This document shows, one piece after another, positions 10,045-39,601 of a stretch of DNA of 64,000 nt. A program made the translations under genes and the position numbers. A model generated the notes under the pieces. It worked only from the letters and a program-made list of their open reading frames with translations, had not been told where the DNA came from and searched no databases. The stretch comes from Gammaproteobacteria bacterium. Lineage in GTDB: Bacteria; Pseudomonadota; Gammaproteobacteria; Pseudomonadales; Pseudohongiellaceae. The stretch is taken from positions 1,614 through 65,613 of the forward strand of contig JAPKAI010000004.1 in NCBI GenBank assembly GCA_028825335.1, written 5' to 3'. Numbering within the stretch: the stretch's first letter is position 1; each line of letters starts with the position of its first letter.

Positions 10045-10764
10045 ATGTTAGAAGCCCAAAACCTTGCCAAAAGCTATAAGAAAAGAGAAGTCGTGCGCGA
10101 TGTCTCCATTTCTATACGGCAGGGTGAAATAGTAGGACTGTTAGGTCCCAACGGAGCTGGCAAGACCACCTGCTTCTATATGATTGTAGGACTGCTCCCT
10201 GCCGATAACGGTAAGGTACTGCTTGGAAATGACGACATCACCGATGCCCCTATGCATCAACGAGCCAGCCATGGCCTCGCCTATCTTCCGCAGGACTCTT
10301 CCATCTTTCGTACGCTGAGCGTTGAAGATAATATTTTTGCTATTTTAGAAACGCGCAAAGACCTTAGTAGCGCCGAGAAGCGAAGCAAACTGGAATCACT
10401 ACTTGAAGAATTCAACATACAACATATTCGGCACAACAAGGGCATGAGCCTTTCTGGTGGTGAGCGCAGAAGAACAGAGATTGCGCGAACGTTAGCTACC
10501 GATCCAAAATTTATTTTATTGGACGAACCATTCGCTGGAGTGGATCCGATTTCCGTGAGCGATATCAAGCAGATTATTCAACAGCTTAAGGCTCGCAACA
10601 TCGGCATACTCCTCACTGATCATAATGTTCGCGAAACCTTAGACATTTGCGAAAAGGCTTACATCGTGAGCGAAGGGAAAATCATCGCCGAAGGAAATGC
10701 CGCGGCCATCCTTTCTAATAAAAAAGTGAGAGAAGTTTACCTAGGCGATCACTTTCAAATATAG
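10045..10764 (+). CDS. lptB: LPS export ABC transporter ATP-binding protein LptB
   Basis: 239 aa; Walker [10 protein letters not shown], signature LSGGERRR, Walker B ILLDEP. Confidence 0.95.
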
Positions 10765-10980: not shown

Positions 10981-12492
10981 ATGAAACTTTCGCTTCAGCT
11001 CAAGCTCGGTCAGCAACTGACCATGACTCCTCAGCTGCAGCAAGCTATTCGACTTCTGCAACTCTCAACACTCGACCTTCAGCAAGAAATTCACCAAGCG
11101 CTAGAATCCAATCCGATGTTGGAGCTAATCGAAAATGGCGAAGATGATGATGTCCCAGCCCCAGCAGATAGCTCTACAACCACAGACCCGAAAGCAGCCA
11201 AAGAAGCTGAATCTAGCATTACTACCAGAGACAACACCGAATTAAATGGTGACGACAACGACTGGCAAAACGATATCTCTAGTGACCTTGGCGTAGATAC
11301 GCATTGGGATGACATCTACCCAGGCACCTCCTCACAATCGAGCTCTTTCGACGGAGACTCCACTGACTTCGAGTCTCGAACCAGCGCCGAAGGCACACTG
11401 CAAGACCATCTTCTGTGGCAGCTCAATCTAACCCATATGTCTGAACAGGACGCTTCGATTGCGCTCGCAATTATCGATGCGATCGATACCAACGGCATGC
11501 TCACTACCGATCTCGAATCGATACACAGCGGCTTCGATAGCGACTTAGAAATAGAAATCGATGAGATAGTCGCCGTACTCCACCGCATCCAGCAGTTCGA
11601 TCCTATTGGCGTCGGTTATAGGAACCTTTCCGAATGCCTCATGCTACAACTTGCACAGATCAATTCCCAAGAGAATGAGAAAGCCGTTAGAAATGCCAAG
11701 CTAGTGATCAGCGAGCACATAGATCTTCTTGGCAATCGCGACTACGCGCAGCTTATGCGACGAACGAAGCTTAAAGAGGCCGAGTTAAGCGAGGCAATTA
11801 CCATTGTAGAGAGCTTAAATCCTAGACCGGGATCGAGTATCTGCCCGCCTTCGACTAGCTATGTAGTGCCAGACGTGATCGTGAGCAAGGACAGCACTTC
11901 GGGAAAATGGAAAGTCGAGCTAAACCCCGAAACAGCGCCAAAAATCCGCATCAACAGCGGTTATGCCTCTCTCGTAAAGCGGGCTGACACCAGTAATGAT
12001 AATAATTATTTGCGCAACAATTTGCAGGAGGCCAAGTGGTTCATCAAGAGCCTGCAGAGTCGCAACGAAACATTGATGAAGGTATCTACACGCATAGTCG
12101 AACACCAAAAGGATTTCCTCGAGTATGGCGAAGAAGCGATGAAACCGTTAGTGCTCCACGAAATCGCCGAGGCAGTTAGTATGCACGAATCAACAATTTC
12201 GCGCGTCACTACTCAGAAATACATGCACACACCCAGAGGTATCTTCGAGTTAAAATACTTCTTCTCTAGCCACGTTTCCACCAAGGGCGGCGGCGAGTGC
12301 TCTTCCACGGCAATTCGGGCGATAATACGTAAACTGATCGCTGCGGAGAATACCAAAAAGCCGCTGAGTGATAGTAAAATAACCAATCTATTAGAAGAGA
12401 AAGGCATCAACGTGGCTAGACGCACTATTGCCAAATATCGAGAGTCTCTCGCTATCCCCCCTTCTAACGAGCGCAAGCGACTGGCAAGCTAA
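10981..12492 (+). CDS. rpoN: RNA polymerase sigma-54 factor
   Basis: 503 aa; Gln/Leu-rich region I ([29 protein letters not shown]), acidic region II, and RpoN box [10 protein letters not shown]. Confidence 0.95.
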
Positions 12493-13015: not shown

Positions 13016-13080
13016 GAGCCTCTGCATTCAACTGAGGTTCCTCAGCAATACAACGCTTTAACCAAAACGGGGTAACCTTG

Positions 13081-13935
13081 ATGAAGCTAACCATAATCAG
13101 CGGCAGATCGGGCTCTGGAAAAAGCACAGTACTGCACATCCTTGAGGATCGCGGCTACTATTGCATCGACAATCTACCAGCTAGTTTGCTGCCAGCCCTC
13201 GCAGACCGCATCAGCCATGGCGATACCCACCTTCCCAATGTAGCCGTCAGTATTGACGCTAGAAATATCTCCGCTGACTTACAACAAGCGCCCGAAATAA
13301 TCAGTGAACTGCAGGCGAGAGAATTATTCACAGAGATAATATTCCTCGACGCCAACAGCCAAACCCTGCTGAAACGGTTCAGTGAGAGCCGCCGCAAACA
13401 CCCTTTAAGTAATGAGTCTACCGATCTGCGTGAAGCAATCGATATTGAATCAACATTATTGGAATCAATTTCCATGATGGCAAACCTCGTTATCGATACC
13501 AGTAATATGTCTCTTCATCAACTAAGAGACCTAGTGAAGAACCGACTGTTGGAGAGCAGCGAAACCAACATGGCATTGCTGTTCGAATCCTTCGGATTTA
13601 AAAATGGCGTCCCCGTAGATGCTGATTTAGTCTACGATGTTCGTTGCCTACCCAACCCTTATTGGGACACAGCACTCCGATCACTGACTGGACTTGACGC
13701 CGATGTTGCTAAATTTCTAGACTCGCAAGATGAGGTCCAGGAAATGGTCGATGACATAAGAGCTTACTTAGAGAAATGGCTGCCAAGGTATGAAAGCAAT
13801 AATCGCAGTTATATCACCGTTGCTGTAGGCTGCACAGGAGGCCAACATCGTTCCGTATACATTGGCGAGAAGTTGGGACAGTACTTTTCATCCAAAATCA
13901 AGAACGTGCAAACACGTCATCGCGATCTCGGTTGA
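13081..13935 (+). CDS. rapZ: RNase adapter / nucleotide-binding protein RapZ (YhbJ)
   Basis: P-loop GRSGSGKS at the N-terminus and a CTGGQHRSV C-terminal motif. Confidence 0.9.
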   Translation: MKLTIISGRSGSGKSTVLHILEDRGYYCIDNLPASLLPALADRISHGDTHLPNVAVSIDARNISADLQQAPEIISELQARELFTEIIFLDANSQTLLKRFSESRRKHPLSNESTDLREAIDIESTLLESISMMANLVIDTSNMSLHQLRDLVKNRLLESSETNMALLFESFGFKNGVPVDADLVYDVRCLPNPYWDTALRSLTGLDADVAKFLDSQDEVQEMVDDIRAYLEKWLPRYESNNRSYITVAVGCTGGQHRSVYIGEKLGQYFSSKIKNVQTRHRDLG

Positions 13936-16335: not shown

Positions 16336-16487
16336 ATCCAGCACGGCGATTCGAGCGTAAAAAAACATCATTTTACCTAGACTAGGGGTGCCTATACGGT
16401 ATCCCCATTAGATGATAAACTCGTTGCAAATTAATAGGCTACGCGATCTCCCCTTGAGAGCCCTAGCACTACAATAATAAGAAGAGG

Positions 16488-16787
16488 ATGCCCATGTCTG
16501 ACTCCCGCGCCAATTCCTACTGGAAAGCTAATATTCGCTTAGTACTCTCCCTGCTCTCTGTCTGGTTCTTCATTTCTTTCGGCTGCGGGATTCTATTTGT
16601 CGATGCGCTAGATACGATTCGATTCGGCGGCTTTAAACTCGGCTTCTGGATCGCGCAGCAAGGTTCGATCTTCGTCTTCGTGGCGCTAATACTTATCTAC
16701 ATTCGGGCAATGGATAAGCTAGACAGCAAGTACGATCTTGATGCTTCAGCTGAGGGCGCGAAACCGGCTCAGGAGGAATCACAATGA
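16488..16787 (+). CDS. DUF4212 small membrane subunit of a sodium:solute symporter
   Basis: 99 aa with two TM helices. Stop overlaps the start of the downstream symporter (ATGA at 16784-16787), which is the typical arrangement for DUF4212/VC_2705-type pairs. Confidence 0.75.
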   Translation: MPMSDSRANSYWKANIRLVLSLLSVWFFISFGCGILFVDALDTIRFGGFKLGFWIAQQGSIFVFVALILIYIRAMDKLDSKYDLDASAEGAKPAQEESQ

Positions 16788-18472
16788 GCGTACAAGTATG
16801 GACTTACCTTTTCGTCTTTCTTTCTTTCTCTCTCTATATTGGCATCGCTATCTGGTCTCGTGCCGGTTCCACTAAGGAATTCTATATTGCTGGAGGCGGA
16901 GTTACGCCTCTCGCAAATGGTATGGCGACAGCCGCAGACTGGATGTCGGCCGCGTCCTTTATCTCCATGGCAGGACTCATTTCCTTCCTAGGCAGAGATG
17001 GCACGTTCTACCTAATGGGCTGGACTGGCGGCTATGTGTTACTCGCCCTTCTCTTAGCACCGTATTTGAGAAAGTTTGGCAAATTTACCGTGCCGGATTT
17101 TATCGGAGATCGCTACTACTCACAGACTGCCAGACTTATAGCCGTATTCTGCGCTATCTCTGTCTCCTTCGTTTATGTTTGCGGCCAAATGCAGGGCGCA
17201 GGTATTGTGTTCTCTCGCTTCCTTGAAGTCGACTTCACGACTGGCGTGCTAATCGGCATGGCAATCGTATTCTTCTACGCCGTATTGGGTGGTATGAAGG
17301 GAATAACTTACACTCAGGTTGCTCAGTACTGCGTTTTGATCTTCGCCTTCATGGTCCCGGCGATATTCATCTCCATTATGATGACCGGCCAACCCATACC
17401 GCAGATCGGCTTTGGCTCTGAACTCACTGAGGCCTACGGCGGCGGTTACCTGCTGGATAGACTCGATGGCCTTAGCGAACAGCTTGGGTTTGCAACCTAC
17501 ACCGAAGGCCAGCGCAGCACCCAAGACGTATTCTTCATAACTGCTGCATTGATGTTCGGCACTGCTGGTCTGCCCCACGTCATCATTCGCTTCTTCACCG
17601 TACCTAGCGTGAGAGATGCCCGAAAGTCGGCTGGCTATGCACTAGTCTTTATCGCAATCCTCTATACGACTGCACCCGCAGTAGCCGCCTTCGCTCGCAC
17701 CAATCTCATCAATACAGTGAGCAATGCCGAATACGCCGCAGTACCGGAATGGTTCAGTAAATGGGAAGATACCGGACTAATCACCTTCGATGACAAGAAC
17801 AACGATGGCATCATTCAATATGTAGGTGATCCTGAGACTAATGAGTTAAATGTAAATAGAGACATCATGGTACTCGCCAATCCCGAGATTGCGGAGCTGC
17901 CCGCCTGGGTGATAGCGCTAGTAGTTGCAGGAGCGCTCGCCGCCGCTTTGTCGACGGCAGCAGGCTTACTCCTGGTAATCTCGACCTCGATTGCGCATGA
18001 CATGCTGAAACGAACCTTCATGCCCGATATTACCGAGAAACAAGAACTCGCCTGTGCGCGTGGATCGATCTTCGTGGCCGTGCTAATTGCCGGTTACTAC
18101 GGGATCAATGCGCCCGCCTATGTGGCACAGGTAGTCGCCTTCGCGTTTGGGCTTGCTGCAGCGTCATTCTTCCCTGCCATCGTCCTAGGTATTTTTCAGA
18201 AGCGTATGAATAAGGAAGGGGCTATCGCCGGAATGGTAGTCGGTTTTACTTTTACCGCGGCTTATATTATCTACTTCAAGATTATCAACCCAGCTGCAGA
18301 CAGTGCTGATAATTGGTTCTTTGGGATATCCCCAGAAGGAATAGGCTCTCTCGGAACATTGGCAAATCTAGTAGTAGCGCTGACCATAGCTAAGTTCACT
18401 CCAGCCCCTCCTGCGGCAGTACAGGAAATCGTAGAGAATATCCGCCTGCCAGGTGAGCCGACTCCTCGCTAG
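16784..18472 (+). CDS. Sodium:solute symporter (SSS family, VC_2705/ActP-like subfamily)
   Basis: 562 aa polytopic SSF protein, translationally coupled to the DUF4212 partner. Confidence 0.85.
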   Translation: MSVQVWTYLFVFLSFSLYIGIAIWSRAGSTKEFYIAGGGVTPLANGMATAADWMSAASFISMAGLISFLGRDGTFYLMGWTGGYVLLALLLAPYLRKFGKFTVPDFIGDRYYSQTARLIAVFCAISVSFVYVCGQMQGAGIVFSRFLEVDFTTGVLIGMAIVFFYAVLGGMKGITYTQVAQYCVLIFAFMVPAIFISIMMTGQPIPQIGFGSELTEAYGGGYLLDRLDGLSEQLGFATYTEGQRSTQDVFFITAALMFGTAGLPHVIIRFFTVPSVRDARKSAGYALVFIAILYTTAPAVAAFARTNLINTVSNAEYAAVPEWFSKWEDTGLITFDDKNNDGIIQYVGDPETNELNVNRDIMVLANPEIAELPAWVIALVVAGALAAALSTAAGLLLVISTSIAHDMLKRTFMPDITEKQELACARGSIFVAVLIAGYYGINAPAYVAQVVAFAFGLAAASFFPAIVLGIFQKRMNKEGAIAGMVVGFTFTAAYIIYFKIINPAADSADNWFFGISPEGIGSLGTLANLVVALTIAKFTPAPPAAVQEIVENIRLPGEPTPR

Positions 18473-31729: not shown

Positions 31730-31883
31730 GCTACTATTGTGTAGCCGCAGTCGCATGCGCTGCTCCAAGAAACAGCGCATGTGACCAATCTCACCGACGA
31801 GCCGCCTCAGAACCAGCCATTTTCTGCCTTCCTAATTGAGAAAGAGAAATACGGGCCCTATCCGTATTAGACTGGCACTCAAT

Positions 31884-32795
31884 ATGCAAAAACCAACAGC
31901 TACACAAATCGATACAGAGTCGAGACAGGGCTACATCGGTCGCTTCGCCCCCTCGCCCACAGGCCCCCTACATTTCGGCTCGCTGCTTGCCGCGTTAGCG
32001 AGCTTCCTCGATGCGCGTGCAAACCAAGGTAAATGGCTAATGCGTGTAGAAGACTTAGACCCGCCTAGGGAGCCCGCCGGCAGCGCCGAGCTTATCCTGC
32101 AACAGCTTCAAGACCTTGGCATGGATTGGGATGATGAAGTGCTCTATCAGAGCTCACGCTTGGATGCATATGAAGAGGTCATGGATCAGCTTCAAGAGAA
32201 GGGCCTGTGCTATCCCTGCGATTGCACTCGGCCGCAGATCAGGGAAATGGGGTTGGTCTACAATGGCTCCTGTCGTGAACGGGGCGCCCCACCAGAGACG
32301 CCCTATGCGCTGCGCTTAAAAACTGACGCGCTAGAAATAGGCTTCGATGATGAGATTCAAGGGCACTTCGCCCAACAACTAGAATCCGAAGTTGGCGATT
32401 TCGTAATTCGTCGAAAGGACGAGCTATTTGCCTATCAGCTAGCTGTCGTTGTCGACGATGAATTTCAGAATATAACTCATGTAGTGAGGGGCTGGGATCT
32501 GCTCGACTCAACCCCGCGACAAATCTATTTGCAAAGAGCCCTCAATTACCAAGAAATGAGCTACGCCCACATCCCGATCATCGTCGATGAAAAGGGGCAG
32601 AAACTCAGCAAACAGTCTTTTGCACCATCGATTGAAACTGATAGAGCATCCCAGGCAATATACAAGGCACTGACTTTTCTTGGCCAAGCACCACCGACAG
32701 AAATAGAAAAAGAGAGCCCCAAGTCTCAGTTGCAGTGGGCTATAGGCAGTTGGGAGAGTCAATGGGTAGCAAAAGTCGGCAACCTACCACTGTAG
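31884..32795 (+). CDS. gluQ: Glutamyl-Q tRNA(Asp) synthetase
   Basis: GRFAPSPTGPLHFGS (HIGH-like) and KLSKQ motifs, about 300 aa, follows dksA. Start set at ATG 31884; the track start is a TTG at 31836. Confidence 0.9.
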   Translation: MQKPTATQIDTESRQGYIGRFAPSPTGPLHFGSLLAALASFLDARANQGKWLMRVEDLDPPREPAGSAELILQQLQDLGMDWDDEVLYQSSRLDAYEEVMDQLQEKGLCYPCDCTRPQIREMGLVYNGSCRERGAPPETPYALRLKTDALEIGFDDEIQGHFAQQLESEVGDFVIRRKDELFAYQLAVVVDDEFQNITHVVRGWDLLDSTPRQIYLQRALNYQEMSYAHIPIIVDEKGQKLSKQSFAPSIETDRASQAIYKALTFLGQAPPTEIEKESPKSQLQWAIGSWESQWVAKVGNLPL

Positions 32796-32887: not shown

Positions 32888-33064
32888 GTGTATATACCTC
32901 GATCAATCTTGGTCCTGTTACTAATAATCTATCTGCTGTTCTTACTTAGCGTAGATTGGATCAACCAGAGCGCTGGCGGCTGGTATCGCCCGTTCTTTTT
33001 GGGCTTCATAGTAATCCTTGTCGCGAGCTGGTCTCATCGAGAACAGGATTCCGATGAATTTTGA
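32888..33064 (+). CDS. Small two-TM membrane peptide overlapping the cbrA start (cbrX-like)
   Basis: GTG 32888 is preceded by GAAGGA six nt upstream. The 58 codons encode two hydrophobic helices (SILVLLLIIYLLFLLSV, FFLGFIVILVASW). Its TGA (33062-33064) lies 8 nt inside cbrA (ATG 33054). The earlier part of track ORF 32735-33064 overlaps gluQ. Confidence 0.45.
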   Translation: MYIPRSILVLLLIIYLLFLLSVDWINQSAGGWYRPFFLGFIVILVASWSHREQDSDEF

Positions 33065-35975
33065 AGTAAGTACAATCGTCGCTCTCGGCAGCGGCTATCT
33101 CGGGCTATTGTTCGGCATCGCCTTCGTGACGGAGCGCGGCTGGATTCCCGAAAAAATCGTTCGCCATCCGATCGTTTACGTGCTCTCTCTCGGCGTATTC
33201 GCCAGCGTCTGGGCTTACTATACCTCCATCGGCAACGCCCTGCGTGATGGCTATGGTTATCTCGCTGGCTCTATCGGCATCTCGCTGGCATTTCTACTTT
33301 CACCTTTGTTATTGCGCCCCCTACTAGAACTGACTCGCACCTACCAGCTGAGCTCACTAGCTGATCTAGTGGCATTTCGCTACCGTTCGCCTTGGGCGGG
33401 CACAGTTTCCACCCTCGTCATCCTGATCGCCGTTATTCCCCTTATAGCACTGCAGATAAGAGCAGTTTCAGACACAGCATTTTTGCTTTCACCTGAGGCG
33501 GGGCAAAGCTTCTTCGCACTCGGCTTCTGCGTGATAATTACTCTATTTTCGATTCTGTTCGGCACTTCTAGAAGGGCTGGACGGACACAGTACGATGGCC
33601 TAGTCATGGCGATTGCCTTCGAATCGCTAGTGAAGCTGATAGCGTTCCTCGTTGTCGGGGCGTTCGCGGTGTATGGCGCCTTCGGCAGTTTCAGTGGACT
33701 CGATCAATGGTTACAGGAGCAACCTGAGCTTATAGCAAGTCTAAAGAACACCGACTACTTCTCTTCGTTCCATGTTATGACGCTACTGTTCTTCACTGCT
33801 GCGGTCGCGATGCCACATATGTTCTACGTAACCTTTAATGGCAATAATGGTCAGCGAGCCCTCTCGTTTGCGAGCTGGGGATTGCCTCTGTATTTCTTAC
33901 TGCTTAGCCTACCAGTCCTTCCCATTCTCTGGGCCGGCCTACAGTCACGCAGCAGTGTGCAGGTGGAATACTTCCCGGTAGTTATCGGTGCCGCCTACGA
34001 TGCTCCTATGATCAGCCTACTCGCCTATCTAGGTGGATTGTCCGCCGCGAGCGGGCTGATCATCGTTATAACGCTCGCGCTCTCAAATATGTGCCTGAAC
34101 CATTTGATACTTCCCATCTATCAACCGAAGGCGAATGAGGACATTTATCGCTGGCTACTCTGGAAGCGCCGCACCCTTATAACCGCAATTATATGGCTAG
34201 GCTTTCTCTTCCATTACCTACCTAGCGAGCAAATAAGCATTCAGGTGATCGGTATTGTCGCGTTCACCGCATGCCTGCAATTTATGCCGGGCATAGTCGC
34301 GATTCTTTACTGGCCAGCGGCAAATAAAAAAGGATTCCTATGGGGGCTGGGCACTGGCGTGCTTATCTGGTTTCTATTTCTAATGCTACCGCTGTTATCC
34401 GACACGGACCCCCTTGCGTTAGTTTCGGTCAATTGGCGTGAGATAACCGCCCTCTCACTCATTAGCAACTGCGCGCTATTCTTAGCCGTCTCACTCTTCA
34501 GCACGAGCAGCGACGCAGAACGAAGCTCTGCCGATATTTGCACGCTCGATACAATTAAGCGCCGCAAGCGCAGTGGTCTGGTGGCTAAATCACCGCGCGA
34601 CTTTATTAAAAGCCTCAGCAAGCCTCTAGGCGAGAAAACCGCAAACCGAGAAGTGAGCCTGGCATTAAAGGATTTAAACATTGGCGAGAATGATCGGCGG
34701 CCGTACGCTATGCAACAACTGCGCGATAAACTGGAAGCTAATCTATCGGGCTTACTCGGCCCCTCGATTGCACGAAAGATTATCGATGGCTACCTTCCTT
34801 ATAGCATCGTCTCCCAGCACCGCAGCTCGGATCTTAATGTAATCGAGAGTCGTATCGAAGCCTATCGCAGTAATCTGTCTGGCATGGCGGCAGATCTCGA
34901 CAATCTGAGACGCTACCATCGTCAGATCCTGCTTGATCTACCCTTAGGTGTCTGTTCACTCAGTACCGACAATGAAGTCATCATGTGGAATCGAGCGATG
35001 GAGCAGTTTACTCAGCTGAATAGTGCCGATGTCGTTGGCTCTCAACTTATCGATCTCTCGGAACCTTGGCTAAGTCTGTTCGCAAACTTTATCGATGACG
35101 ACGCCAGTCATGCCTATAAGTATGCATTCGAATTAGATGACCAGAAGCGGACGGTCAACCTCCACAAGGCTCTAATAGAACAAACCAGCGACCCAGATTC
35201 CATTCACGAAGGCGTAATCATTCTTCTGGAAGACATTACCGAAATGGAAATTCTCGAAGCGGGTCTTACACACAGTGAAAGACTTGCCTCCATCGGTAGG
35301 CTGGCTGCAGGCGTAGCTCATGAGATTGGAAACCCGATCACCGGCATTGCCTGCCTCGCACAAACCATTCGAGACGAATACGACAACAAAGAATTGCTCA
35401 ACCTTGCCGAGCAAATTATCGAACAAACCGACCGCACATCGACGATCCTACAATCCTTGGTCAACTTTGCGCACGCAGGTACAAACAAGACTCAATACGA
35501 AAGTGAAATAGTAACTATTAGCGAATGCATGACACAGGCTCAGACTCTGGTATCCCTGGATAGAAAGAGCAAAGAATTAAACCTGCGCATCGACTGCGAC
35601 CCTGATGCGAAAGTTCTCGGCGACTCGCAGCGCCTCTTGCAGGTGTTAATTAACCTAATCAACAACGCTCGTGATGCAAGTCAAGCAAATGGCGAAGTCC
35701 TCTTGCAGACACGAGTATTAGGCGAGACAGTCGAAATCGCTGTTATCGACGAAGGAATCGGCATTCCCCTAGCGATAAAGGATCGCGTCTTCGACCCCTT
35801 CTTCACAACCAAAGAGGCGGGAGAAGGCACTGGTTTAGGGCTCTCCCTCGTTTTCAGCATAATTGAAGACTTAGGTGGTGATATTGATATAATCAGCCCC
35901 GCAAACGAAGACACAGGCGGCACGCGGGTATTACTGCGATTTCCTTGCTACCATAGCGATTCCGCCACGCACTAG
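33054..35975 (+). CDS. cbrA: Sensor histidine kinase with an N-terminal SLC5/sodium-solute-symporter-like domain (CbrA-type)
   Basis: About 973 aa. About 13 TM SSS-like helices, a PAS-like segment, H-box AHEIGNPITGI, and N/G boxes (NLINNARDA, GTGLGLS). No receiver domain. Paired with an NtrC-type regulator. Confidence 0.85.
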   Translation: MNFEVSTIVALGSGYLGLLFGIAFVTERGWIPEKIVRHPIVYVLSLGVFASVWAYYTSIGNALRDGYGYLAGSIGISLAFLLSPLLLRPLLELTRTYQLSSLADLVAFRYRSPWAGTVSTLVILIAVIPLIALQIRAVSDTAFLLSPEAGQSFFALGFCVIITLFSILFGTSRRAGRTQYDGLVMAIAFESLVKLIAFLVVGAFAVYGAFGSFSGLDQWLQEQPELIASLKNTDYFSSFHVMTLLFFTAAVAMPHMFYVTFNGNNGQRALSFASWGLPLYFLLLSLPVLPILWAGLQSRSSVQVEYFPVVIGAAYDAPMISLLAYLGGLSAASGLIIVITLALSNMCLNHLILPIYQPKANEDIYRWLLWKRRTLITAIIWLGFLFHYLPSEQISIQVIGIVAFTACLQFMPGIVAILYWPAANKKGFLWGLGTGVLIWFLFLMLPLLSDTDPLALVSVNWREITALSLISNCALFLAVSLFSTSSDAERSSADICTLDTIKRRKRSGLVAKSPRDFIKSLSKPLGEKTANREVSLALKDLNIGENDRRPYAMQQLRDKLEANLSGLLGPSIARKIIDGYLPYSIVSQHRSSDLNVIESRIEAYRSNLSGMAADLDNLRRYHRQILLDLPLGVCSLSTDNEVIMWNRAMEQFTQLNSADVVGSQLIDLSEPWLSLFANFIDDDASHAYKYAFELDDQKRTVNLHKALIEQTSDPDSIHEGVIILLEDITEMEILEAGLTHSERLASIGRLAAGVAHEIGNPITGIACLAQTIRDEYDNKELLNLAEQIIEQTDRTSTILQSLVNFAHAGTNKTQYESEIVTISECMTQAQTLVSLDRKSKELNLRIDCDPDAKVLGDSQRLLQVLINLINNARDASQANGEVLLQTRVLGETVEIAVIDEGIGIPLAIKDRVFDPFFTTKEAGEGTGLGLSLVFSIIEDLGGDIDIISPANEDTGGTRVLLRFPCYHSDSATH

Positions 35976-36023: not shown

Positions 36024-37397
36024 ATGACAGCGATGCAACAAGTTTTAGTAGTGGAAGATGAAGTAGTTATTCGAACTGCCTTGAAGCGATTACTAGAACG
36101 CCACGAATACAAAGTCAGCGAAGCGGGAACCGTCAAAGAGTCGATAGACAATTTCGACATGGACGACTTCGACGTGATAATCAGCGACTTGCGACTGCCG
36201 GGCGCACCTGGTACCGATCTGATTAAGGCAACCACCACGCCGGTTCTAATCATGACCAGCTACTCAAGTATTCGCTCAGCCATCGATTCGATGAAACTTG
36301 GCGCCGTCGACTACATCGCCAAACCATTTGAACACAAAGAACTAATTGCGTCCGTAGCCAAAGTAATTCGCGAACACGCTAAAGCGCCACGTCAATCTAT
36401 TAAAGCGCCTCCAGAATTTGAACCTCCCGTTCATGGAATGATCGGTAGTTGCCCGCAGATGATGGAACTGTTTCGAAGAATTCGTAAAGTTGCCCTTACC
36501 AATTCTACCGTCCTAATCAATGGAGAATCGGGAACGGGAAAAGAACTCGTTGCTAGAGCGATTCACAACTTGAGCAATCGCCACGCAGAGGAAATGATAT
36601 CTGTAAATTGCGCAGCGATTCCAGAAAACCTAATTGAGTCTGAACTATTCGGCCACGAGAAGGGAGCCTTTACCGGCGCCACTGCAACCAGAACAGGTTT
36701 AGTCGAAGCCGCTAATGACAGCACGCTATTCCTAGATGAAATTGGCGAGCTACCGCTCGAAGCTCAGGCCAGACTGCTAAGAGTTCTGCAAGAAAATGAG
36801 ATTCGCAAGGTCGGCTCTGTGCAGTCAAAGAAAGTCGACGTGCGCCTAGTCGTTGCTACCCATCGCGACCTCAAGCAATTGGTAGTAGATGGACACTTTC
36901 GTGAAGACCTCTATTACCGCATCAATGTGATGACACTCTTGATCCCGCCGCTTAGAAACCGCGGTGACGATATATTAGAATTAGGTGAAGCCATTCTACA
37001 ACGCACCTGTAAGCGCCTTAAAACAAAGATGCTCAAAATGAGCGACGGTGCTAGACGCGCCATATTCAATTATGGCTGGCCGGGAAATGTACGTGAGCTG
37101 GAAAATGCGATAGAACGCGCTGTTGTGCTGGCCGAAGAATTGGAAATCTCAGAAGAGCTTCTTGCTATAGACGACGAAGAGAAACCGACGCCAAATCAGA
37201 AGTCGGAATTACAGAACCTACAGAATACTCCCCAGCCAATCGAGGAGCTCTCATTAGAAGACTACTTCCAGCGCTTCGTTCTTGAGCACCAAGACGCCAT
37301 GAATGAGACCCAGCTCGCGAAGAAATTGGGCATAAGTCGCAAGTGTCTTTGGGAGCGTCGCCAGCGCTTCGGCATTCCCCGAAAGAAGAAGCACTAA
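36024..37397 (+). CDS. cbrB: Sigma54-dependent response regulator (NtrC family, CbrB-type)
   Basis: REC domain (VVEDE..., [11 protein letters not shown]), AAA+ domain with GESGTGKE Walker A and the GAFTGA loop, [10 protein letters not shown], and a C-terminal HTH. Confidence 0.9.
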
Positions 37398-37553
37398 TTC
37401 TAGAAAGAGACTAAAAAAGTCACTGACATCGACATTTACTTCGCGTCAACTGCTCCCCTCGAACAGCACCGGACTTACTCCTGCCGGCTGCTATAACCCG
37501 AAGTAATGAGCATACCGCCAGCCTGAGCTTTGCACGTGGGCTGGAGTGTAATT

Positions 37554-37600
37554 TGTTACTGCTACCCTTTTACCCACCCAATCAGGGAATATCCGTAACA
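37554..37600 (+). promoter_or_regulatory. Candidate CbrB upstream activating sequence: TGTTAC-N35-GTAACA
   Basis: Perfect hexamer inverted repeat (TGTTAC 37554-37559, GTAACA 37595-37600), 75-120 bp upstream of the sigma54 promoter. The half-sites equal those reported for Pseudomonas CbrB. Confidence 0.45.
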
Positions 37601-37673
37601 AAAGTGGGAATTTAAGATTTGATCACTAGCTTCTAAAAGACTAAGTCACTGATAAATAACAAATTAGTCTTCT

Positions 37674-37689
37674 TGGCACAGTAAGTGCT
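37674..37689 (+). promoter_or_regulatory. Sigma54 (-24/-12) promoter
   Basis: TGGCACagtaaGTGCT versus consensus TGGCAC-N5-TTGCW. GG (37675-76) and GC (37687-88) are 12 nt apart. Confidence 0.7.
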
Positions 37690-37699
37690 GTATATAAAA

Positions 37700-37975
37700 G
37701 CATAATAATAACAATAAACAATAATAATAAATCTTAATAAAAATAAAAATAGCATTACTAAGTTAAAAAACTAAGGTTAGTGCACTAAATAATAAAAAGG
37801 TCGGGTTGTAGTCTGAATTTGACGTTTGTCATCTAACTTCATAATTACCACCTTAATACTTATGCAGTACCGATTTGGGTGCTCACTTAATAAGAATAAT
37901 AAATTAGTAAATAACAATAACAATAACAAAATCTAGCTTCCAAGTGGGGGGGGTGGTATTCACCCCCCTAATTAT
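37700..37975 (+). ncRNA. crcZ: CrcZ-like A-rich (ARN-repeat) Hfq/Crc-sequestering sRNA, about 275 nt; ends approximate
   Basis: No credible ORF. Starts about 12 nt downstream of the sigma54 -12 element. Three clusters of overlapping AANAANAA motifs (37702-37750, 37787-37798, 37888-37930), ending in a G/C hairpin. Sits between cbrB and pcnB, as crcZ does in Pseudomonas. Confidence 0.6.
37946..37968 (+). terminator. Terminator-like hairpin closing the putative sRNA
   Basis: GGGGGGGTG-gtatt-CACCCCCC stem-loop. The downstream tract (TAATTATAT) is only moderately U-rich. Confidence 0.5.
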
Positions 37976-38245
37976 ATCCTTCAAAATACCCAATTCCTTC
38001 ATACTTCCTATTCTGGCTGCGCCGTGCCTGCAGTTTTCTCCCGTTCCGTGTATCATGCTTATTGATGCTTACAATCCGAATTCCAATTCATTTGAGGGGC
38101 TTTTACAGCCGACGCACACTACTCTCCTGTAATCTCGTACTTTGCATTGGTGCCACTAAAGAAAATAAGCCGTGATCAACTCCTCTAACCATCCCAGACC
38201 AAGCTTCGCTTCGCTACACAACAGCGCACCGGAGTGCGACCAACA

Positions 38246-39601
38246 ATGAATCAATCTACGCCAGGTACTGATCTCGTAGGTATCGAGAACGCAACCGTTT
38301 TAGAACGTGATAATCATCCGATCTCACGCAAACATATATCACCGAATGCCGTAAAGGTTCTCTACAAGCTCGCAGAAGCTGGATACCATGGATTTCTAGT
38401 AGGCGGCGGAGTGCGCGACTTATTGCTCGGCAAAAGCCCTAAGGACTTCGACATAGCCACCGATGCGTCGCCGGAGCAACTCAAGTCCCTGTTTAGAAAT
38501 GCTCGAATCATCGGGCGCCGCTTCAAAATAATTCATCTGCGCTTTGGCCGAGAGATCATTGAGGTTACAACATTTCGCGCACCTCATGATTCGGAAAATA
38601 AAATTGACGACAATGTACCTAGGCGGCGCATTCAGAACCAAGAATCTGCCCATTCAACCGCTGGAATGATCCTAAGGGACAATGTCTACGGCAACATTGA
38701 CGAAGACGCCCTACGTCGGGACTTCACCATCAATGCTCTCTACTACACAATAGACAAGTTCCGCATCCTCGACTTCAGTACCGGCCTAGACGATTTGGAG
38801 TCTAAGCAGATTCGCATGATAGGCGATCCCGCTGAGCGCTATAAAGAAGATCCCGTAAGAATGCTGCGCGCAATTCGTTTTGCAGCGAAGCTTGGCTTCA
38901 CCATCGAAGAGAAAACAGAGAAGCCCATCAATGAATTGGCTCATCTACTAGAATCTATCTCTACGGCAAGACTCTTCGATGAAACGATCAAATTGATGAC
39001 TGGTGGCGATGCCGAGAAAACATTCGAATTGCTTCGCCGCTACCGGCCTGGCGTCTATCTCTTCGCACCTACCCTCCGCGCACTGGATAAACTCTCCGGC
39101 CCGCCTTGCAAGCTGGTAGAGCTGGCACTTAGAAATACAGACGGACGCCTTGCTGAAGGCAAATCGGTAACTCCAGCATTTCTCTTCGCAGCCCTACTCT
39201 GGCCAGTGTTGCAGCTTCGCTTAGAGGCGCAGAAATCGGACGAAGGCAATCAGCATCAGCTATTCCAACAGGCAGTACAGGAAGTGCTGATGGAACAGAT
39301 CCAATACACGGCTGTGCCCAAGCGCTTCACTATCGCCGCAAAGGAAATATGGGAACTACAATCACGGCTCATGCGTGACAATAAGCGCAGCATCGAAGGC
39401 TCATTCAGCCACCCACGATTCAGGGCAGCATACGATTTCCTATTGCTACGTGAAGAGGCTGGTGAAGACTTAGGCGGCCGCGGGGAATGGTGGACGCAAT
39501 TCCAGCTTGGCGATACAAGTCAGATCATTCAGCGCGCAAGCATTGAGTCCGATCCATCAAAGAAGAGACGTCGTCGACGTAGGCCAAAGACTGAAAGTTA
39601 G
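38246..39601 (+). CDS. pcnB: Poly(A) polymerase I
   Basis: About 451 aa; GGGVRDLLLGKSPKDFDIAT nucleotidyltransferase motif, RRDFTINALYY, and a basic C-terminal tail. ATG 38246 (the track start is GTG 38234). Confidence 0.9.
   Translation: MNQSTPGTDLVGIENATVLERDNHPISRKHISPNAVKVLYKLAEAGYHGFLVGGGVRDLLLGKSPKDFDIATDASPEQLKSLFRNARIIGRRFKIIHLRFGREIIEVTTFRAPHDSENKIDDNVPRRRIQNQESAHSTAGMILRDNVYGNIDEDALRRDFTINALYYTIDKFRILDFSTGLDDLESKQIRMIGDPAERYKEDPVRMLRAIRFAAKLGFTIEEKTEKPINELAHLLESISTARLFDETIKLMTGGDAEKTFELLRRYRPGVYLFAPTLRALDKLSGPPCKLVELALRNTDGRLAEGKSVTPAFLFAALLWPVLQLRLEAQKSDEGNQHQLFQQAVQEVLMEQIQYTAVPKRFTIAAKEIWELQSRLMRDNKRSIEGSFSHPRFRAAYDFLLLREEAGEDLGGRGEWWTQFQLGDTSQIIQRASIESDPSKKRRRRRRPKTES

Follow-up and report, generated by a model that had tools for sequence, protein, structure and literature searches.

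The 836 bp gap (37398-38233) between the cbrB and pcnB genes in a 64-kb stretch of DNA from a Pseudohongiellaceae bacterium with ~48% GC (assembly GCA_028825335.1, contig JAPKAI010000004.1; the window hereafter, whose coordinates are used throughout) contains a predicted small RNA (sRNA) gene of ~270 nt, which extends on the plus strand from its predicted +1 to a terminal hairpin and tail (37700..37975). In Pseudomonas and Azotobacter the cbrB-pcnB gap houses crcZ, whose product (Rfam RF01675; 407 nt in Pseudomonas aeruginosa PAO1) is a decoy for Hfq and Hfq/Crc. Based on synteny, promoter architecture, and motif content, we consider it quite probable that the window element is the Pseudohongiellaceae crcZ counterpart, namely a separately transcribed non-coding RNA predicted to be activated by CbrB, the integration host factor (IHF), and sigma54, and to act as an Hfq decoy. 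As such, it represents a compact version of CrcZ and, by position, its orthologue. An earlier note, made from the sequence of this DNA alone, had proposed a CrcZ-like RNA at this position and wavered between a divergent member of the family and an independent solution; the synteny, promoter geometry, and collinear transcript start favor the divergent orthologue. The note's remark that the host is not a typical high-GC pseudomonad agrees with its base composition and affiliation, the genus Pseudohongiella being placed in the family Pseudohongiellaceae of the Pseudomonadales (NCBI taxonomy); the closest CbrB-like proteins are named for Pseudohongiella and Pseudohongiellaceae.

Two sets of loci were used for comparison. 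A genome scan with the window CbrB recovered 80 loci (77-97% identity) from metagenome-assembled genomes and isolates of Pseudohongiellaceae, which along with the window constitute the 81 family sources; wherever the contig permits, these relatives maintain the order cbrA, cbrB, spacer (540-1300 bp), and pcnB. The second set, comprised of 120 loci, came from a metagenome scan with a pattern combining the Rfam CrcZ consensus and the -24/-12 element; about 100 of these are of the Pseudomonas type (GC ~0.6), and those tested with the Rfam CrcZ model scored 152-333 bits, thereby providing positive controls. Six loci with GC below 0.45, among the approximately 12 that lack both cbrB and pcnB, were discarded as chance matches to the search pattern. 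Two loci (L189 and L191) code for CrcZ-like RNAs behind a sigma54 promoter without flanking cbrB or pcnB (L189 scores 152 bits on RF01675), and are presumably CrcY/CrcX-type Pseudomonas paralogues.

A predicted A-rich RNA on a three-hairpin scaffold

The RNA gene occupies a pronounced dip in base composition (GC of 0.24-0.27 at 37600-37900 vs 0.45-0.52 in the flanks). A covariance model constructed in this analysis (CM R1) scores it at 245.8 bits and recovers a single plus-strand copy in 78 of the 81 family sources (47-267 bits; 233-291 nt, median 267 nt); neither the window nor any of the 80 loci yielded another copy. The absence of a credible open reading frame (ORF) from the spacer, already claimed in the earlier note, extends to the relatives, among which no ORF keeps to one position or frame; the minus-strand ORFs of 40 and 50 codons and those on the plus strand within the RNA were rejected as genes, their starts falling in differing columns and frames from one relative to the next.

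The clusters of A-rich motifs that had been pointed out over ~275 nt stand out sharply against the background: the interval 37700-37975 has 19 overlapping AANAANAA matches as against 1.3 +/- 1.3 in composition-matched shuffles, and 276-nt tiles over the window have a mean of 0.15. The same interval displays six (ARN)4-7 runs, all of which are unpaired in both the minimum free energy (MFE) and the consensus structures. These runs are distributed over three plus-strand blocks: the single-stranded block 1 (37703..37751), with three (ARN)5-6 runs from 37704, 37717, and 37736 and most of the invariant alignment columns; block 2 (37784..37796), with an (ARN)4 run from 37788; and block 3 (37886..37932), whose runs are an (ARN)5 at 37889 and an (ARN)7 at 37910. 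Across the relatives, which are phylogenetically related sequences compared over runs defined on the window sequence, the first position of the 32 ARN triplets is A in 94% of the alignment cells and the second a purine in 98%, whereas the third is unconstrained, its entropy being 0.92 bits as compared with 0.20-0.25 bits at the first two (Mann-Whitney p = 1.5e-8). Such a 3-nt periodicity in a predicted non-coding RNA is what would be expected from the A-R-N rule for recognition by the distal face of Hfq, a rule of which CrcZ makes use (PMC8395346). The motif load of the Pseudohongiellaceae RNAs is on a par with that of the Pseudomonas-type CrcZ RNAs, with medians of 15 vs 14 AANAANAA matches and 6 vs 5.5 ARN runs.

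Single-sequence folds of the window RNA and seven diverse relatives share a common plan, in which a long, unpaired A-rich 5' block is followed by stem-loop 1 (SL1), a short A-rich linker, SL2, SL3, another long A-rich block, and the terminal hairpin. SL1 (37752..37783; GCAUUACU.AGUU/AACU.AG..UUAGUGC) has two helices whose pairing over the set of relatives amounts to 98.7% and 94.5%, respectively, and an apical part that varies or, in certain clades, has been deleted. The TTAGTGCACTAA palindrome listed in the earlier note does not form a separate hairpin: its UUAGUGC is the 3' arm of SL1 and pairs with GCAUUAC. SL2 (37797..37854) is a long interrupted hairpin (AAGGUCGGG...CCACCUU) with strong compensatory changes (e.g., GC:35/AU:29, CG:29/UA:18, and AU:31/GC:31). 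SL3 (37866..37883; AGUACC/GGGUGCU; -8.9 kcal/mol, z = -3.1) shows such changes at 6 of its 6 pairs. The terminal GC-rich hairpin (GGGGGGGUGG-UAUU-CACCCCCC(U)) is present at 37947..37969 (-19.3 kcal/mol), as the earlier note had it, albeit without a U-tract behind it in the window's clade; its sequence differs by clade, with compensatory changes between clades at 7 of 8 pairs. A Pseudomonas-type crcZ locus, L083, likewise ends without a U-run. Between the last A-rich block and this hairpin lies a single-stranded GCUUCC/CUUCC element (37936-37941, plus strand), which is kept in most Pseudohongiellaceae copies, is absent from Pseudomonas CrcZ, and may be an anti-Shine-Dalgarno-like seed.

This fold is supported by covariation in two alignments. 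In a MAFFT alignment, which is blind to structure, 81.7% of the cells are paired as opposed to 39-50% in slid controls, 31 of 48 pairs show compensatory changes, and 209 cells are changed on both sides vs 96 +/- 13 in shuffles. The corresponding figures from a CM-guided alignment of 78 sequences, which is fitted to the structure and hence biased toward it, are 86.8% vs 37-49%, 36 of 47 pairs, and 303 vs 95 +/- 14.5 cells. RNAalifold applied to the MAFFT alignment yielded only 18 pairs, its stems being misaligned, and was replaced by projection of the window MFE structure along with the CM-guided alignment.

An alignment of 66 whole spacers delimits the conserved unit. Identity to the window is merely 0.07-0.33 past the cbrB stop, rises to 0.5-0.8 in the enhancer and to 0.55-0.91 from the promoter through the RNA, and falls from 0.63 to 0.20 directly past the terminal hairpin (after 37977). 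Because conservation begins at the enhancer and ends at the hairpin, the limits of the conserved unit are exactly those that an enhancer, a promoter, and a transcript would be expected to show. Within it, the ~10 nt from the -12 element to the +1 are variable among the relatives, with conservation of the RNA beginning within a few nucleotides of the +1 and remaining high from AAUAAyAAUAAAyAAUAAUAAUAA onward to the GC hairpin. The expectation that the promoter, the upstream activating sequence, and the A-rich blocks would be conserved is thereby borne out, and the structured core is conserved as well.

These boundaries bear directly on an alternative reading, under which the sigma54 promoter would serve pcnB under the control of CbrB, with the A-rich stretch acting as a long 5' untranslated region or attenuator instead of a free-standing sRNA. 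To its credit, pcnB lies on the same strand ~260 nt downstream, some read-through is possible, and in the clade of the window the U-run is missing from the hairpin, because of which a simple scan for sigma70 promoters and terminators, empty of anything useful on the plus strand, misses it. However, this reading has to contend with the collapse of conservation right past the hairpin, the canonical U-tract terminators found at the same position in other clades (L018, L019, L029, and L045), the discrete CrcZ produced from the same arrangement in Pseudomonas (PMC8395346), and a separate conserved promoter-like motif before pcnB, with the form GTGTATCAT in the window and TGCTAGAAT in the Pseudomonas-type loci. 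We accordingly regard a pcnB leader as very unlikely. The GTGTATCAT motif (38049-38057, plus strand) follows a conserved CCTGyAGTTTTC, is found in 48 of 74 spacers with a local conservation peak of 0.60, and is probably pcnB's own promoter.

The CbrB-type enhancer and predicted sigma54 promoter

Upstream of the RNA is a plus-strand CbrB-type enhancer (37554..37600), which is comprised of the subsites F1 (TGTTAC, 37554-59) and R2 (GTAACA, 37595-600), with a middle block between them. The TGTTAC...GTAACA inverted repeat, first spotted in the earlier note, is the sole TGTTAC-N35-GTAACA pair on the two strands of the window (as against 0.03 in shuffles), and recurs in the relatives as TGTTACyGCTACyC...TACCCA...GTAACA at a fixed distance 5' of the promoter. 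Its 35-nt spacing had been construed as two extra helical turns; in fact, it equals the F1-to-R2 distance of the published tripartite CbrB site (TGTTAC-N12-14-GTAACA-N15-19-GTAACA; PMC8871633), and is therefore a normal spacing rather than an abnormal F1-R1 gap. The geometry is closely matched in the two lineages: the F1-R2 spacer measures 34-35 nt in 61 of 71 Pseudohongiellaceae loci vs 36-38 nt in the Pseudomonas-type loci, and the distance from R2 to TGGCA is 72-74 nt vs 74-76 nt. They differ in the middle GTAACA subsite (R1): 95 of 101 loci of the Pseudomonas type possess it, whereas all 61 Pseudohongiellaceae loci scored lack it, not even a middle GTAAC being present. Its place is occupied by a conserved, lineage-specific block, GCTACCC-N3-TTACCCA (37561-76, plus strand). 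This natural loss of R1 bears on the question of which CbrB subsites are required; the CbrB site has been the subject of mutational work (PMC6296734).

Between the enhancer and the promoter is an IHF-like site on the minus strand (TTATCAGTGACTTAG, 37641..37655), which fits WATCAR-N4-TTR as had been reported, and which recurs at the same promoter offset in both lineages. In the relatives it takes the form YAA-N4-TTGAT at a fixed distance from the promoter; a strict version of the element 32 nt 5' of the TGG is found in 37 of 71 Pseudohongiellaceae and 75 of 108 Pseudomonas-type promoters. Dependence of crcZ on IHF is documented (PMC6296734, PMC8395346).

The sigma54 -24/-12 promoter itself (TGGCACAGTAAGTGCT, TGGCAC-N5-GTGCT; 37674..37689, plus strand) has its GG at 37675-76 and GC at 37687-88, placing the predicted +1 near G37700. 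The motif is not decisive on its own, because the window has two matches to TGGCAC-N6-TGCW where 0.26 are expected; the near-consensus promoter called earlier gains its weight from the relatives, in which TGGCAY-N5-nTGC is conserved in 72 spacers, 120-500 bp (mostly ~170-370 bp) past the cbrB stop. Five more relatives have a degenerate -24/-12 element and one further locus is masked by Ns. In the five (L030, L035, L038, L066, and L070), the enhancer and RNA are kept and the degenerate element (e.g., TGGCTCAGTAATTGTGC and TTGGTATAGTAAGTTCG) lies ~200-260 nt past the cbrB stop; some sublineages may thus have promoters that are weakened or altered. The second match in the window (TGGCAC-N6-TGCA, 31873-31888, plus strand) extends over the start codon of gluQ (ATG at 31884), is not preceded by a CbrB-type enhancer, and is probably due to chance. 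Thus, at the level of sequence, the Pseudohongiellaceae promoter unites an RpoN-type -24/-12 element, a CbrB-type site, and an IHF-like site, with R1 being the missing component.

Relationship to CrcZ and other decoy RNAs

The window features the gene order sfsA, aminotransferase, dksA, gluQ, cbrX, cbrA, cbrB, RNA, and pcnB, and the Pseudomonas-type loci also carry sfsA, the aminotransferase, dksA, gluQ, and cbrX in order. The proteins of the Rfam-positive Pseudomonas-type crcZ loci show full-length identities of 49-52% (CbrA), 60-64% (CbrB), and ~50% (PcnB) to those of the window. Judging from these sequence comparisons, the flanking genes are true CbrA, CbrB, and PcnB orthologues, and the crcZ-like position recognized in the earlier note is embedded in an extended synteny common to the Rfam-positive loci. 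The likeness extends to the F1 and R2 subsites, the IHF-like site, and the sigma54 promoter at near-equal distances, to single-stranded stretches that carry five to six ARN/AAnAAnAA blocks, and to a 3' G-run hairpin situated after two A-rich motifs and a linker. The predicted window RNA starts with GCAUAAUAAUAACAAUAA where Pseudomonas-type CrcZ starts with GCACAACAACAAUAACAA, and the 5' ends are collinear (TGGCACAGTAAGTGCTGTATATAAAAGCATAATAATAACAATAAAC in the window and TGGCACGGCAACTGCTTTATATCTGGCACAACAACAATAACAAGC in the Pseudomonas type), with GCAyAAyAAyAAUAACAA in common.

Beyond this shared frame, the two RNAs differ considerably. The Pseudohongiellaceae RNA is shorter (median of 267 nt vs 363 nt in 94 Pseudomonas-type loci, and ~360-410 nt for the CrcZ family), the ~100 nt difference vindicating the claim that it is much shorter than CrcZ, and it has 34% GC as opposed to 49%. 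Its enhancer lacks the R1 GTAACA subsite of the CrcZ loci, its SL1-SL3 have no counterpart in CrcZ, with insertions replacing the CrcZ internal stems in the CM alignment, and its host family lies outside the range recorded in the literature. The earlier assertion of no obvious primary-sequence identity beyond the motifs needs amending: the similarity of the RNA body to CrcZ is weak, but the 5' and 3' ends do display a weak collinear similarity. A-rich block 3 can be weakly aligned with the A-rich module at the 3' end of Pseudomonas CrcZ, and all CM R1 hits checked against promoter coordinates, like the nhmmer hits, fall only inside crcZ (E ~5e-4 to 1).

Several observations weigh against the assignment of this RNA as a CrcZ counterpart and temper our confidence in it. 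The comparison with the Rfam CrcZ model, advised in the earlier note, gave a score on the third A-rich block (37887-37975 only) of 17.1 bits vs the threshold of 95 (E = 0.029 in an 843-nt search), which does not amount to a family match, and at threshold there were no hits to this model in the whole window or in the 11 relatives tested. Reciprocally, CM R1 scores the Pseudomonas-type loci at 9-26 bits, mainly through the 5', middle, and 3' A-rich blocks and the terminator, with the central stems becoming large insertions, a pattern which might also result from convergence. The best-conserved part of the RNA is the structured core rather than the A-rich blocks alone, which hints at a further function. 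To these may be added the absence of R1, the degenerate -24/-12 elements of the five relatives, the missing U-tract in the window's clade, which leaves termination and the 3' end uncertain, and the lack of a match to hfq or crc within the 64-kb window in tblastn searches with Escherichia coli Hfq and P. aeruginosa Crc as queries (the Crc query having been confirmed to be the same as PDB 4JG3). By sequence, the RNA is outside RF01675 as currently defined, though it sits in the CrcZ slot with CrcZ-like motifs. Other weak Rfam hits (rli48, enterovirus CRE, SIB, and blv_FSE) were dismissed as chance matches, being due to the GC hairpin.

The weak similarity of the RNA body and the unrelated central structured part could be taken to mean that the element is a convergent A-rich RNA, or even a mere AT-rich spacer, that is non-homologous to CrcZ. 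A neutral spacer is excluded by the conservation and covariation. As for convergence, it would have to account for a nine-gene synteny common to both lineages, a promoter geometry that agrees within ~2 bp with the IHF-like site included, the collinear transcript start, and the similar 3' module of two A-rich motifs, a linker, and a G-run hairpin. Because of the nine-gene synteny and the base-pair-level agreement of the promoters, this reading is disfavored, and we rate it the most improbable of those considered here. Instead, we infer from the synteny and promoter collinearity that the RNA shares its ancestry with Pseudomonas CrcZ but has diverged to become shorter and AT-richer, with a structured core of its own and no R1.

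The conserved and covarying SL1-SL3 and GCUUCC element, for which Pseudomonas CrcZ offers no counterpart, raise another alternative: the ARN blocks might serve just to load the RNA on Hfq, in a class II-like manner, with regulation falling to SL1-SL3 or GCUUCC. The RNA would then act by base-pairing in dependence on Hfq, or as a decoy for another protein, either of which would be compatible with sponge activity. A precedent of sorts is the Acinetobacter baumannii sRNA99 from another Pseudomonadales family, an A-rich (AAN), Hfq-associated RNA with three such motifs, which its authors liken to CrcZ on the basis of RNA interaction by ligation and sequencing (RIL-seq) with Hfq (PMC12802169). In contrast to its three motifs, the Pseudohongiellaceae RNA has six ARN blocks, far in excess of what loading would need and matching the load of CrcZ, with the triplet-periodic constraint spanning all six; the passages on sRNA99 that were consulted mention neither a cbrB-pcnB location nor a CbrB/sigma54 promoter (PMC12802169). 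Among decoys for other proteins, the CsrB/RsmY/RsmZ RNAs, which sequester CsrA/RsmA, offer a parallel in design, wherein a two-component system drives an RNA with repeated single-stranded motifs between hairpins that titrates a global translational repressor, as would be the case here. However, these employ multiple GGA motifs in hairpin loops and a sigma70 promoter dependent on GacA/UvrY in place of ARN motifs and a sigma54/CbrB promoter, and there is no GGA in 37700-37975, no sigma70-like promoter on the plus strand, and no Rfam hit that would indicate an Rsm/Csr-type RNA. Consequently, we deem a primarily base-pairing role or a decoy function toward another protein unlikely, and favor the Hfq decoy related to CrcZ. 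Closer to the latter are CrcY and CrcX (P. putida, P. fluorescens, and P. syringae), which are CbrB/sigma54-dependent A-rich Hfq decoys, as predicted here; nevertheless, their genes occupy other genomic sites and RF01675 still recognizes them, whereas the Pseudohongiellaceae RNA is a single copy in the crcZ slot.

A more far-reaching proposal, which we put forward tentatively as possible but on balance doubtful, is that the CbrAB-CrcZ module is both older and more widely distributed than the Pseudomonadaceae and that the Pseudohongiellaceae RNA represents a distinct minimal architecture and a separate family. In this case, six ARN blocks would be arrayed on a three-hairpin scaffold absent in Pseudomonas CrcZ, with the scaffold or the GCUUCC element conferring an additional activity, such as binding to a second protein, base-pairing with targets, or bringing several Hfq hexamers together independently of Crc.

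The predicted circuit and its genomic setting

Following the Pseudomonas precedent, we propose that when preferred carbon sources are low, CbrA would activate CbrB, which would then bind the TGTTAC...GTAACA enhancer ~75-120 bp upstream of the promoter, with IHF bending the DNA between them, and open the RpoN promoter at 37674-37689. Transcription would start near 37700 and end at the GC hairpin (37947-37969). The resulting RNA presents six single-stranded (ARN)4-7 blocks spaced by three conserved stem-loops; these blocks are predicted to bind the distal face of the Hfq hexamer, with or without Crc, and might thereby titrate Hfq off the A-rich ribosome-binding sites of catabolic and uptake mRNAs to relieve catabolite repression. 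By analogy, then, the Pseudohongiellaceae RNA would be an Hfq/Crc sponge.

CbrAB and crcZ have been described as exclusive to the Pseudomonadaceae (PMC6296734, PMC8871633), and a full-text literature search recovered no paper linking CrcZ to Pseudohongiella or other marine Pseudomonadales. Contrary to this picture, the complete module (cbrX, cbrA, cbrB, enhancer, IHF-like site, sigma54 promoter, A-rich RNA, and pcnB) is found in at least 78 Pseudohongiellaceae-family sequences, which suggests that the CbrAB-crcZ carbon-control circuit is not confined to that family. The finding extends a well-known system in taxonomic range and in structure, and does not constitute a new kind of system. The Pseudohongiellaceae (OM182/Pseudohongiella) are abundant marine bacterioplankton; if the circuit operates in them as proposed, Hfq-based 'reverse' catabolite repression may shape substrate choice in the ocean. 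In practical terms, the current Rfam model misses this RNA, and CM R1 would permit its annotation. Further, as a natural minimal CrcZ, with an equal number of predicted Hfq sites in 100 fewer nucleotides and a clean triplet periodicity, it might be useful for structural studies of Hfq-RNA assemblies.

The protein-coding components of the module, all encoded on the plus strand, have the organization typical of CbrAB systems, viz., a CbrA with SLC5-type, PAS, and kinase regions, an overlapping cbrX upstream, and an NtrC-family CbrB downstream. The sensor kinase CbrA (33054..35975; 985 residues) contains Pfam PAS, HisKA, and HATPase_c domains, and aligns over residues 9-976 with 49-51% identity to the CbrA proteins of Pseudomonas-type loci. 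An SLC5-type membrane domain is predicted in it from ~13 hydrophobic segments within residues 16-498; the SSF domain is not called by Pfam at E <= 1e-3, the hydrophobic segments and the collinearity being what cover this region. Just 5' of cbrA is a cbrX-like small ORF (32888..33064; 58 codons) coding for a hydrophobic product, the stop of which overlaps the cbrA ATG at 33054. Comparable ORFs were detected by tblastn in this position in 73 Pseudohongiellaceae-family sequences and in 31 Pseudomonas-type loci, with 38% identity to the latter where detectable. The translational coupling of cbrX and cbrA has been described in P. putida (PMC9100948, PMC8871633), and the conservation of this arrangement suggests that it is ancestral. 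CbrB (36024..37397) is an NtrC-family sigma54 enhancer-binding response regulator (Pfam Response_reg, Sigma54_activat, and AAA_lid_14), and pcnB (38234..39601) codes for poly(A) polymerase I (TIGR01942, 481 bits vs a cut-off of 305.65). The window also encodes RpoN (10981-12492, plus strand; NF004595, 738 bits), and hence the sigma factor required by the predicted promoter is present; rpoN lies in a cluster with lptB (10045-10764) and rapZ (13078-13935).

Scattered AANAANAA matches near start codons were considered as a sign of an Hfq regulon and set aside as not statistically informative, given 50 single hits in 128 kb (both strands) with one convincing case. The latter is AAUAAUAAGAAGAGGAUGCCCAUG (16473-16490, plus strand), in which five ARN triplets overlap a Shine-Dalgarno sequence. 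The small ORF to which the latter belongs is followed by a Na+/solute symporter gene of the VC_2705 family (16784-18472; TIGR03648, 845 bits), and this symporter operon is plausible as an Hfq-repressed uptake operon and a candidate target of the circuit.

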